A stretch of DNA of 29,094 nucleotides, taken from contig JAHEIK010000001.1 of assembly GCA_024639415.1 (NCBI GenBank), forward strand, positions 1 through 29,094, written 5' to 3'. Below are positions 1 to 7,496 of the stretch, in pieces; position 1 is the stretch's first letter; each line of letters starts with the position of its first letter. Source of the stretch: Planctomycetota bacterium (GTDB lineage Bacteria > Planctomycetota > PLA2 > JAEUHO01). Under the pieces are notes generated by a model that did not search any database, was not told where the DNA came from, and saw only the letters and a program-made list of their open reading frames with translations. A program made the translations under genes and the position numbers.

Positions 1-10
1 CCGGCGGTGT

Positions 11-187
11 TCGGGCTTGTCCGGTTCGCGTGCGTGCCGCTGCGGTACCCGGGGCTCGAGGCCATCGGCCGGTGGCGTGGTGACGGCGCTGGAACGCGGT
101 TGGACTTCGGCGCATCACGGCCCGCGACCGCCGGAACGCAACAGGCTCGAATCCGCGCCATCCGGCCCAAAAAGTGAAATCGAGGGC
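11..187. repeat. Long direct repeat, copy 1 of 2 (177 bp, period 331 bp)
   Basis: Aligns without gaps to 342-518. Identical blocks: 11-24 (14 bp), 35-77 (43 bp), 102-173 (72 bp), 181-187 (7 bp). Variable slots of 10, 24 and 7 nt lie between them. Confidence 0.95.
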
Positions 188-188
188 T

Positions 189-218
189 GTTGCCGGTCCG
201 CGGAGCGGGCCGAGCAAC
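189..218. other. GC-rich hairpin immediately after repeat copy 1
   Basis: gttgc-cggtccgc (189-201) pairs with gcgggccg-a-gcaac (205-218), with one G-U pair, a 1-nt bulge and a 3-nt loop. Confidence 0.5.
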
Positions 219-341
219 TGCAGGTGACCGGGTGCGGTGCATCGTCCGGCCTGCGGGCGTCGTGCGCATCGAGCCCCGGTTCGGCCTGAGCGCAGCGAGG
301 GCCGTGCCTGTGGGTGTCCGCGGCGGCTACTCCCTGGATGC

Positions 342-518
342 TCGGGCTTGTCCGGATCGTAGCCATGCCGCTGCGGTACCCGGGGCTCGAGGCCATCGGC
401 CGGTGGCGCGGAAGTTGCGCCAGGCCGCCGAGGGACTTCGGCGCATCACGGCCCGCGACCGCCGGAACGCAACAGGCTCGAATCCGCGCCATCCGGCCCA
501 AAAAAGAACGACGAGGGC
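342..518. repeat. Long direct repeat, copy 2 of 2
   Basis: Identical blocks 342-355, 366-408, 433-504 and 512-518 match copy 1 at a constant offset of 331. Confidence 0.95.
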
Positions 519-4697: not shown

Positions 4698-7496
4698 ATG
4701 CGTACGTTCACTCTGGCCGGATTGCTCCTGCTCCTCCTTTTCTCGATGGGCCCCGGCAGCCTCGCCGTGGCGGACGACAAGCACGACCTCAGTGAGGCCA
4801 TGGCCAAGGAACTCGTGGCCAAGGCGGCGTCGGCATCCTCGCGCTACCTCAACGCCATCGTGGCACTCGGCGCGAAGTTGACGGCCAAGGACCTGACGGC
4901 AACGAACGTCGATGCGCCGATGACGGTCGTCGCAGCCGTGATGGGCGGCAAGGACCTGGATGAGCGCGACTTCAAGCTGCTCCCGACGGCCACACCGAAG
5001 GCCTTCGCCGAGGCGATCTATCCCGAGGAGGTGCGCGCCGGACAGCGCGTGCCGAAGCATGCCTACGCATCGATCGTGCACGGGGAGTACGTGTACGACA
5101 TCGACGTGAAGGTCAACGGGCGCACCGCGACGGGCGGCGTCCGCTTCCGCGCACCCGGCGCCTACGAGGGCTTCGTGAACTACACGGCCTTCCGTGACGC
5201 CGCGGGCTGGAAGGTCCTCGAGCTCTCGTTCCCGCACTCGCAGGTCCGCACGACGCTCGAGGCTGGACGCTGGCGTCTCCACCTGCCGGCATCGTTGACT
5301 GGTGCTCGCAGCGGGCGCCGCACCGATCTCGATCTCCCCCACGTCGGCACGCTCGGGCAGGTCCCTTCCGCAGGGCCGGGCCGTGTCGTGATTTCCGTCA
5401 CGCGCGAGGGCTGGCTGCGCGTGCCCGGGGTCGCCAAGCCCCTGAGCCTGCACGACCTGCAGCAGTACCTGAAGACGCGCACGCGCGACCCGGCCCTACG
5501 CGAGCCCGACGGCTCGAGCCGGGTTGATGCCCTGCTCGACATCGACAAGACGATCCCCTGGACCGTGACGCAGTGGATCATGCAGACGTGCGCCCACCCC
5601 GAGAGCAAGATCTACAAGATCTGGTTCGGCGCACAGACCCAGGACGGCGCGTCCGGCGCCATCGCGTCGATGCTGGGGAAGGACCGCGGGCTCGCGCCCA
5701 CGCCGGCGTTCCCGAGGGAGTTCATCAAGCACAAGCTCAAGGTCTTCAAGATCGCGCGCTTCAAGCAGCCGAGCGGCCTGCGCGCGCTGTACTGGGCGCT
5801 GAAGAAGCGCCATGACGCCTCGGCGCGGCGGCAGCGTCCCGAGGCCAAGTTCGAGATCGTCGCACCGCCGCCGAAGGGCGGCGCGGTGCCTCACGGCTAC
5901 GTCGTGCAGATGGTCGACGTCTGCCTCGCGGTCGGCGCCCGCGACATCATCTTCGAGGGGTCGGCCGCCCCGCTGCGGGGCCACCCCCTGCTCACGAGTG
6001 CGGAGGCGCTCAGAGGCCACATCGAGGAGCTTCGCAAGCGGCAAGGCGTGCCGCGGGTGCGACTCAACAACGACAAGGACTTCATCGCGCCCGACGACGA
6101 AGGCTTGGCACCCATGCCCGCCCGCGGACTGCTGACGCAGCGCTACGGCGCGGGCGTGAGCCTGCAGGCCGAGGTGATCGAGGAGGACCTCGAGGAGACG
6201 CCGGAAGACGACGGGGACCTGCCGTTCGAGGAGAGCTTCGGGGAGACGCCCGAGGGGCCGAAGCTCAAGGACGAACCCTTCGAGGGGCCCGCCGACAACG
6301 GCAGCATCGGCATTGGCGGCGGCGCAGGCGGCGCCTTCCGCGGCCGGGGAGGCCGGCGGGATCTGAGGCCCGACCTGAAAAAGCTGTGGGCGCGGCAGGA
6401 CAGGTCGGTCGACGCCGCCCTGCGCTGGCTCGCGGCGCACCAGGCCCCCAACGGCGGCTGGCCGGCTGCGGGCTTTGGCAACTTCTGCGATGGCAAGCCG
6501 GTGTCGACCGCAAGCAAGCGACCCGACGGCCTGGGCAAGTCGCTGTACGACGCAGGCGTGACCGGGCTGGCGCTGCAGGCGTTCCTCGGTGCGGGCTACA
6601 CCAACCGCGGCCGCCACCCGTACGCAAAGGTCGTCTCGCGCGGCCTGCGCTACCTGAAGAACATCCAGGATCCCGAGGGCTGCTTCGGACCGCGCGCGAC
6701 GCAGCAGTACATCTACAACCACGCCATGGGCGCACTCGCGATGGTCGAGGCCTACGGCATGACGCAGAGCCCGATCTTCAGGGGCTCGGCACAGCGCTGC
6801 CTGGACTTCATCGCGATTGCTCGCAACCCGTACTTCGCCTGGCGCTACGGCATCAAGCCTGGCGACAACGACACGTCCGTGACCGGCTGGATGTTCGCCA
6901 TCCTGACGAGCGCGGACATGATCAACCGCGATGCGATCAAGCACGGCAGGCAGGCGCCGCTCACGATCGACAAGGAGGCCTTCGCCGGAGCGCAGGCTTG
7001 GCTCGAGAAGGTGACGGATCCGGCCACCGGCCGCGTCGGCTACGTGCAGCGCGGTACCGGTCCCGCTCGCCCGCAGGAGCTGGTGGACAGGTTCCCGGGC
7101 AAGCGCTCGGAGTCGATGACCGCGGTCGGTGCGCTGATGCGCATCTACTTGGGGGAAGACCCGCGCAAGAGCAGCGTCCTCGCGAAGAGCCTCGCGCTCA
7201 TCGCGTCGAAGCCGCCGATCTGGAATCCCTCCTCGGGCGACATCGACATGTACTACTGGCACTGGGGCACGCAGGCCATGTACCAGGCGGGCGGCGAGCG
7301 CTTCCAGGCGTGGCGGAGCGCCATGACGAAGAGCATGCTCGACACCCAGCGCATGGACACGGACGCGTGCCAGTACAAGGGCTCGTGGGATCCGATCGGC
7401 CCCTGGGGTCTCGACGGGGGCCGCGTGTACAGCACCGCGATCATGGCGCTCTGCCTGCAGGTCCGCTACCGCTACGCGCGCGTGTTCGGCAAGTAG
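4698..7496 (+). CDS. Exported multidomain protein: unknown N-terminal domain, ExbD/TolR-like periplasmic domain(s), acidic/Gly-rich linker, prenyltransferase/squalene-cyclase-repeat alpha-alpha barrel
   Basis: 932 aa from ATG 4698 (SD gaggaggt at 4684-4691). Signal peptide MRTFTLAGLLLLLLFSMGPGSLAVA. ExbD-like segment DLDLP...VVISVTREG...DALLDIDKTIPWTVTQWIMQTC...KIYKIWF. Barrel repeats ALRWLAAHQAPNGGW and GLRYLKNIQDPEGCF, and C-terminal GSWDP..PWG..GGRVYSTAIMALCL. Confidence 0.8.
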   Translation: MRTFTLAGLLLLLLFSMGPGSLAVADDKHDLSEAMAKELVAKAASASSRYLNAIVALGAKLTAKDLTATNVDAPMTVVAAVMGGKDLDERDFKLLPTATPKAFAEAIYPEEVRAGQRVPKHAYASIVHGEYVYDIDVKVNGRTATGGVRFRAPGAYEGFVNYTAFRDAAGWKVLELSFPHSQVRTTLEAGRWRLHLPASLTGARSGRRTDLDLPHVGTLGQVPSAGPGRVVISVTREGWLRVPGVAKPLSLHDLQQYLKTRTRDPALREPDGSSRVDALLDIDKTIPWTVTQWIMQTCAHPESKIYKIWFGAQTQDGASGAIASMLGKDRGLAPTPAFPREFIKHKLKVFKIARFKQPSGLRALYWALKKRHDASARRQRPEAKFEIVAPPPKGGAVPHGYVVQMVDVCLAVGARDIIFEGSAAPLRGHPLLTSAEALRGHIEELRKRQGVPRVRLNNDKDFIAPDDEGLAPMPARGLLTQRYGAGVSLQAEVIEEDLEETPEDDGDLPFEESFGETPEGPKLKDEPFEGPADNGSIGIGGGAGGAFRGRGGRRDLRPDLKKLWARQDRSVDAALRWLAAHQAPNGGWPAAGFGNFCDGKPVSTASKRPDGLGKSLYDAGVTGLALQAFLGAGYTNRGRHPYAKVVSRGLRYLKNIQDPEGCFGPRATQQYIYNHAMGALAMVEAYGMTQSPIFRGSAQRCLDFIAIARNPYFAWRYGIKPGDNDTSVTGWMFAILTSADMINRDAIKHGRQAPLTIDKEAFAGAQAWLEKVTDPATGRVGYVQRGTGPARPQELVDRFPGKRSESMTAVGALMRIYLGEDPRKSSVLAKSLALIASKPPIWNPSSGDIDMYYWHWGTQAMYQAGGERFQAWRSAMTKSMLDTQRMDTDACQYKGSWDPIGPWGLDGGRVYSTAIMALCLQVRYRYARVFGK

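Follow-up and report, generated by a model that had tools for sequence, protein, structure and literature searches.

The two repeat copies at the start of the window (the whole stretch of DNA that was analysed, 29,094 nucleotides long) are probably neighbouring units of a tandem array of an undescribed, genus-restricted structured RNA element. What is visible as a repeat is a portion of a folded RNA element of ~330 bases, copied head to tail, and its fold is supported by covariation across five species, as expected of a structured non-coding RNA. The window is contig C200 of G000, a metagenome-assembled genome (MAG) of 4.16 Mb that is 71% complete and consists of 623 contigs. The aligned copies come from this MAG and from sister species of the same genus, which are uncultured sediment bacteria. 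Gene content (Hanks kinases fused to FGE domains, FHA proteins, ~70% G+C) gives no more than a hint of a Myxococcota-like lineage.

Architecture of the repeat unit

Positions 8-187 and 339-518 of the window form a direct repeat without gaps, with a spacing of 331 bp and 86% identity. Compared column by column, the two copies share four identical blocks at 11-24 (14 bp), 35-77 (43 bp), 102-173 (72 bp) and 181-187 (7 bp), while the three slots between them, at 25-34, 78-101 and 174-180, diverge in sequence and keep an equal length. This reproduces the gapless pattern of blocks and equal-length slots described in an earlier note on this DNA, which had also named an assembly artefact as a possible cause. 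The region 144-408 is covered by one unitig from an independent assembly of a sequencing run on the source sediment. Hence, the junction between unit 1, the supposed spacer and unit 2 is present in the raw data and did not arise when the MAG was assembled.

The 154 bp between the copies had been taken for a unique spacer, which proved incorrect. A homologue of this region is found at C453:5340-5512, within the portion of the array that lies on this second contig of the MAG, and the region is kept in the sister species and pairs with the core of the repeat (269-279 with 380-390). As the presumed spacer both pairs with the core and is retained in other copies and species, the full 331-bp period forms one unit and there is no spacer. 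The suspicion that the array may extend to the left of base 1 was well founded: the last 120 bases of C453 are identical to window positions 296-415, and further array units lie upstream on that contig.

A full unit consists of a linker motif with a hairpin, Hs, a domain of three helices (Pa, H0 and Pb; ~131 nt), a junction, the rod P1 (~103 nt, with a closing helix of 14 bp and one bulge) and an A-rich tail. On the plus strand, unit 2 is opened at 174-187 by the conserved linker motif GUGAAAUCGAGGGC, which contains slot 3 and block 4. The same motif stands upstream of the 5' domain at other loci too, including those of units without a detected preceding copy; since the whole GUGAAAUCGAGGGC-Hs-GCAGGUG module is also present there, it belongs to the unit that follows and is not the end of the previous one. 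Hairpin Hs spans 186-221 and is followed by the conserved GCAGGUG (221-226). In C453 and the sister species, the position of Hs is taken by a hairpin of other sequence, each time followed by GCAGGY.

The 5' strand of Pa (269-279, plus strand), which lies inside the former spacer, pairs with the 3' strand at 380-390, with compensatory changes in 8 of the 11 pairs. The complementarity reaches from 266-279 to 380-393, and the Pa segments are complementary through differing sequences in every full copy of the five species. Between the two strands of Pa lie two hairpins. H0 (282-304, plus strand) has a stem of 282-286/300-304, three of whose five pairs covary, and a nearly invariant loop of 13 nt. 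Pb (313-380, plus strand) has its base at ~313-327/367-380, which was obtained both with RNAalifold and from the covariance model (CM) alignment and in which again three of five pairs covary. Its apex, which contains block 1 (342-355) and slot 1 (356-365), is variable, and is absent in the copies C372_b and G001_102. According to the alignments, the junction GGCCAUC (391-397, plus strand) leads into the rod, and its ..AUC ahead of the rod is nearly invariant. The rod P1 of unit 2 (398-498, plus strand) is closed by a helix of 398-411/484-498, in which 10 of the 14 pairs covary, and carries slot 2 (409-432) in its interior. An A-rich tail, CAAAAAA at 499-505 on the plus strand, follows the rod here as it does nearly every rod.

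Unit 1 (1-173, plus strand) is cut by the start of the contig and retains the 3' two-thirds of the element. Models R1 and R2 match it at 28-180, and it aligns to unit 2 and to unit A of C453. Its parts are the Pb apex and 3' strand (11-49), the Pa 3' strand (49-59), whose partner lies to the left of base 1, the junction (60-66), the rod (67-167) and the A tail (168-173). The rod has a closing helix of 67-80/153-167 with one bulged U, supported by covariation, and slot 2 (78-101) in its interior. Local pairings had been proposed for this part of the repeat. The region is indeed structured, but gcgcc at 155-159 pairs with 73-77 as part of the closing helix and not locally, and the apparent palindrome tgccgc..gcggta (35-47) is really one strand of a helix, the 3' one, and pairs with a segment further upstream. 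A T-loop-like ggctcgaatcc had been pointed out as well; it is not kept in either paralogues or orthologues.

Covariation, novelty and the likely RNA strand

Covariation in Pa, H0 and the base of P1 was evaluated on a MAFFT alignment of 15 units with 30 pairs, using as controls the 3' partners slid by 1-3 columns and 500 shuffles. Standard pairs fill 95.2% of the cells, compared with 35-45% after sliding; changes on both sides are seen in 21 of the 30 pairs, and none of the 500 shuffles reaches the observed values. For the 5' domain, a model-based alignment of 15 copies gave 96.8% paired cells versus 30-50% in the slid controls, with 14 of 23 pairs compensatory. RNAalifold, applied to a separate alignment of the 5' domain, independently finds Pa, H0 and the base of Pb. 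The lengths of the modules are nearly fixed. The rod domain measures 102-107 nt in all 20 full-length copies and the 5' domain 130-132 nt in 11 of 15; the segment from H0 to the 3' strand of Pa has 72-75 nt in 11 of 15 copies, while two copies carry a short form of 33-36 nt without the Pb apex.

A search of the whole window against Rfam 15 returned no match at gathering score, and only chance-level matches at E up to 10 in 1-1000. No tRNA genes were found in the window, and in five related loci only tRNA-Ala was matched. With strong covariation and no Rfam match, the description of the repeat as a structured, scaffold-like and undescribed element in an array is borne out.

The H0 stem-loop (282-304 and its homologues, e.g. 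L209:631-654) bears some likeness to tRNA. It reads CGGCC-GUAGCGCAGCGG- and agrees at 15 of 17 positions with the first 17 nt of a tRNA, a stretch that comprises the 5' strand of the acceptor and the D arm; GGCCGUAGC is common to H0 and tRNA-Ala. The best local alignments of the H0 region and of the 3' end of the unit to the tRNAs of the genome stay within the range of shuffled queries, and the resemblance may be due to chance.

Several features bear on the strand that is read as RNA. The conserved helices contain 12 G.U pairs on the plus strand versus three A.C, which correspond to G.U on the minus strand, and the plus strand carries an excess of G+T in four of the five species, with the reverse in G005. 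Calculated for whole rods, the folding energies of the tRNA-adjacent copies in G000 and G001 are better by 9-12 kcal/mol on the plus strand, and those in G005 are better on the minus strand. The plus strand is more likely to be the RNA strand, which we state with moderate confidence. Three metatranscriptomes from the same sample contained no contig on 1-1200, and with 94-196 million letters each they are too small to show absence of transcription.

Neither a sigma-70 promoter nor a plus-strand terminator with a U tract was found by scanning, and on inspection by eye no -35/-10, sigma-54 or ECF motif recurred consistently at a set distance. A's stand after the rod on the plus strand and U's stand before it on the minus strand, and no U tract follows it on either. 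On the minus strand, a tRNA or a hairpin with a U-rich tract stands just ahead of each rod in the copies examined. Past the last unit of the window lies a small GC hairpin of 13 bp (512-544); it alone has the layout of an intrinsic terminator, and this on the minus strand (546-510). Read on that strand, the site consists of a GC hairpin of 13-16 bp followed by the T tract GTTCTTTTTT, and would terminate transcription that enters from the gap at 546-911, in which no gene is annotated.

Copies, gene context and probable concerted evolution

The covariance models detect 9-10 rod modules at five loci of this MAG (two each on C200, C372, C279 and C216, and one or two on C453), accompanied by five full 5' domains. 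At every one of these loci, two or more rods lie side by side. Model matches were obtained in four of five genomes of the same genus and include an array of three units with a period of 315 bp and a second one of at least two units with a period of 335 bp. The fifth genome, G002, contains a diverged array of two units with a period of ~215 bp that escapes all three covariance models, so the repeat family is wider than the model matches suggest. This array (L210, G002:C111) lies in the 3' flank of tRNA-Ala(CGC) and keeps Hs-GCAGGC, ..CCAUCGG.., the rod and the A-rich tail.

Outside the genus, the models gave one weak match among 23 other genomes of the taxonomic family. A search of ~380 genomes from the phylum's other families did not reveal the H0 motif, and its one match outside the genus, with two mismatches, is in a second genus of the same family. 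Relatives of the element thus occur almost only in one genus. Phage and plasmid collections contained nothing similar. An exact-pattern scan of genome contigs pointed to at least 80 loci, and model R2 confirmed none of the 80 that were listed; they are chance matches in GC-rich genomes. The corresponding scan of metagenome contigs gave one locus, which was not confirmed by a covariance model either.

The MAG has two stand-alone tRNA-Ala genes (CGC and GGC). Each lies tail to tail with an array, at a distance of 8-11 nt from its A-rich tail, and their orthologues in the sister species adjoin arrays likewise. At least three locus types, including this window, have no tRNA. On other contigs, ARAGORN made three long 'tRNA-Ala' calls whose stems are mismatched; they lie in GC-rich, apparently coding sequence and look like false positives. 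In two other genera (L212 of G006 and L213 of G013), a plain GC hairpin is all that occupies the interval from the cinA-like gene to tRNA-Ala(CGC). Its 3' arm, CCGCCC at 8-11 nt before the tRNA end, sits at the position of the P1 3' strand, so the rod may have grown out of an intergenic hairpin of this kind. On the 5' side of tRNA-Ala(CGC), at C372:4587-4770 (L042:1787-1970), G000 carries a separate interspersed repeat of ~130-180 bp with the inverted ends GGCTCTG...CAGAGCC. It is MITE-like, with at least 20 copies in the MAG and many more in G004.

The flanking open reading frames (ORFs) with Pfam matches encode ordinary functions: ABC exporter genes, a gene with an FGE-sulfatase domain, a cinA-like (MoCF) gene, phosphoglycerate kinase, DUF1800 and DUF7467. 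None of these matches is a recombinase, reverse transcriptase (RT) or nuclease domain; four further flanking ORFs had no match. A Nop-type (Tas) domain was not detected among the 18 flanking ORFs scanned. The sole match of the genome to PF01548, the IS110 transposase, is on contig C270, which has no array, the single RT also lies on another contig, and no TnpB was found in the genome. The earlier observation that the window holds no cognate protein agrees with these results.

Within the window, the origin of blocks and slots can be followed by comparison with unit A of C453. Blocks 1 and 2 are common to all three local units, and block 2, which comprises the 3' strands of Pb and Pa, the junction and the 5' strand of P1, is the most conserved stretch of the whole family. 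Over positions 1-100, unit 1 matches unit A at 98 of 100 sites and unit 2 at 77, while over 102-173 it is identical to unit 2 and differs from unit A at about a quarter of the sites. Unit 1 thus reads as a mosaic of two neighbouring unit types, a reading that depends on low-coverage assembly, since the first 143 bases of the unit lie outside the independent unitigs. Block 3 is most simply explained as a gene-conversion tract of 72 nt common to units 1 and 2. Slot 1 falls in the Pb apex, slot 2 in the rod interior on its 5' strand and slot 3 in the linker. The rod of unit 1 joins the 5' strand of one type with the 3' strand of the other and, at -50.9 kcal/mol, is less stable than both other local rods (-56.3 and -61.5 kcal/mol).

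The same pattern is found in two arrays of a sister species. Neighbouring units are 99-100% identical over ~220 nt and again over the last 30-55 nt, and differ by ~40%, without gaps, in a stretch of 50-65 nt in the rod interior. The fact that identical flanks enclose a divergent rod interior in two further arrays makes the combination of a scaffold with a variable segment a recurrent property of the family. Adenine mutagenesis as in diversity-generating retroelements (DGRs) is not involved, as the differences between neighbouring units concern all four bases and are not specific for adenine.

Arrays would grow and become homogenised by unequal crossing-over and gene conversion, and conversion would stall at the fast-diverging interior of the rod and leave islands of divergence. 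Because conversion stalls at unconstrained sequence, such islands are expected without selection; a neutral account of the divergent rod interiors is therefore available, and selection for differing rods may also have contributed. That the slots diverge in sequence and not in length would follow from their being helix interiors. In locus L058 (G005:C412), the units c, b and a carry rods of type 1, type 2 and type 1, with 5' domains that are all alike, and this alternation is not explained by a single unequal crossover. On C453, comparison of 5680-5730 with window positions 174-300 shows a second unit after a short linker, at a period of 216 instead of 331. The CGAGGGC after the tail here runs into the CGAGGGC of the H0 loop, which corresponds to a deletion of ~115 bp at a microhomology of 7 nt; Hs, the 5' strand of Pa and half of H0 are lost with it. 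Short units, with 210-216 bp, are also present in C216 and G002.

Function and comparison with known systems

Our best guess for the function, to which we give less credence than to the identification of the element itself, is a plus-strand structural RNA that binds protein. The element would act as an RNA transcribed from the plus strand. Since the units abut without a spacer, each array would probably yield a single precursor, which would be cut at the A-rich linkers. We propose that the invariant H0 loop serves as a handle for an unlinked trans factor, in which case the RNA would not be a guide but would bind protein as a scaffold or decoy.

Alternatively, the arrays could be mosaic extragenic repeats acting in cis, as terminators, insulators or stabilisers of transcript ends similar to BIME, BOX or REP elements. 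The rod would then be an overgrown intergenic terminator or 3'-end hairpin, copied together with accessory modules locally and to a few gene ends. Many of the copies are made up of partial modules, either the rod only or the short unit of ~210-216 nt, besides the long unit, and such varied combinations represent a mosaic habit that is typical of extragenic repeats. The plain GC hairpin of the sister genera, with its 3' arm at the position of the P1 3' strand, points in the same direction, as do the position of arrays behind same-strand genes at two locus types and the tRNA or hairpin with a U-rich tract upstream of each rod examined on the minus strand. Yet a three-helix domain of 131 nt, an invariant loop of 13 nt and fixed lengths exceed the needs of a terminator, and the rod lacks a following U tract on both strands. 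Two loci have a divergent ORF upstream, and the element cannot be the 3' UTR of that gene. The earlier note had named many copies scattered over the genome, as in an ordinary MITE or REP mosaic, among the findings that would refute its reading. The element is indeed multicopy, but its 9-10 rods at five loci are diverged and held at the same loci across species and not scattered genome-wide. Action in cis is the chief competing explanation, but we consider it unlikely.

A further reading takes the units for trans-acting RNAs: the constant three-helix domain and the base of the rod would hold an unlinked protein, and the hypervariable rod interior of fixed length, in which neighbours from three arrays differ although they are otherwise homogenised, would be the specificity module. 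If true, the rod interior would be a measured double-stranded precursor or a guide, and the arrays a new kind of bacterial RNA-programmed system; we regard this as a long shot.

Very improbable, in our view, is a minus-strand RNA that is co-transcribed with tRNA-Ala as its trailer and released by tRNA processing, as with E. coli RtT. Both tRNA-Ala genes and their sister orthologues do adjoin an array at 8-11 nt, a U-rich tract follows the tRNA on its own strand, and the rods of G005 fold better on the minus strand. Such an origin is hard to reconcile with the 12 G.U pairs on the plus strand versus three on the minus strand, with the 9-12 kcal/mol by which the plus strand is favoured in the tRNA-adjacent copies of G000 and G001, and with the locus types, at least three and this window among them, that have no tRNA. 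Moreover, no array holds a copy of a tRNA 3' end of 10 nt or more; the longest words in common have 8-9 nt and come from the 5' part of the tRNA in the opposite orientation. RtT (RF00391) itself was not matched.

The programmable guide or recombination-substrate array that the earlier note had favoured, similar to IS110 bridge RNA or TIGR, fares poorly. Here, the constant scaffold would bind an unlinked effector and the variable segment of the rod would set the target specificity. The proposal draws on three arrays in two species, in which the differences between neighbouring, otherwise identical or almost identical units are confined to a gapless segment of 24-65 nt that lies in the rod, in its 5' half or its interior, on a rod that is fixed in length and free in sequence, and on the invariant loop, which could be a protein handle. 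No effector gene adjoins the loci examined, IS110 and RT being on other contigs, and no target of the slots emerged. Slot 2 sequences have no match of at least 16 nt in the genome, outside their paralogues, beyond chance, and the longest exact matches of nine rods to the genome, 15-17 nt, compare with a median of 17 nt for random genomic 101-mers. The phage and plasmid collections contained no targets of slots or rods. In addition, the variable segments are mostly base-paired, and islands of divergence are expected without selection. A guide array is therefore highly improbable. Least probable of all is a remnant of a mobile or single-stranded-DNA element (a MITE, an IS end or att scars at tRNA genes, which are classic integration sites): the units are multicopy, tandem and beside tRNA genes, folding energies do not clearly choose a strand and the unrelated MITE-like repeat lies beyond the same tRNA-Ala, but there is neither a duplicated tRNA 3' end nor an integrase or transposase nearby, the copies are old, syntenic across species and covarying rather than near-identical, and the conserved helices show a G.U bias.

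We found no Rfam family or published system that matches the element, and its restriction to one uncultured genus limits its general importance. Among known systems, IS110 bridge RNAs and TIGR arrays likewise combine a constant scaffold with variable segments of fixed length, a pattern that here recurs in two other arrays. They are encoded beside their effector gene and their guides match targets; the element differs from them in having no linked effector and no target found, and in carrying its variable parts in helices. Paralogous small RNAs such as OmrA/OmrB, PrrF1/PrrF2 and LhrC1-5 also lie next to each other as copies whose conserved parts are identical and whose other segments diverge. 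These RNAs have 60-150 nt, each with its own promoter and terminator, and act by seed pairing, whereas the units described here have ~330 nt, abut without room for a promoter and display neither a seed nor a target.

RtT of E. coli (RF00391), located behind tyrT, resembles the arrays in its tandem structured units of ~170-180 nt or more beside a tRNA gene. RtT units share the strand of the tRNA, and each is terminated by a copy of its 3' end. In contrast, the arrays contain no such copy, favour the opposite strand in their conserved helices, do not match RF00391 and are without a tRNA at half of their loci. With BIME/REP and BOX elements they share the intergenic location, often at gene ends, the modules in varying combinations and hairpins with compensatory changes. 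BIME/REP of enterobacteria and BOX of pneumococcus comprise tens to hundreds of short modules scattered over each genome, unlike the ~10 rods at five syntenic loci seen here, with their multi-helix domain of 131 nt, invariant loop and fixed lengths. Few bacterial structured RNAs exceed ~200 nt and have several covarying helices; among these, the ones that have been investigated usually play elaborate biochemical roles. The element described here combines five supported helices, an invariant loop and near-fixed module lengths with tandem amplification and a repeated link to tRNA-Ala, and within its genus it is a clean case of the concerted evolution of an RNA array.
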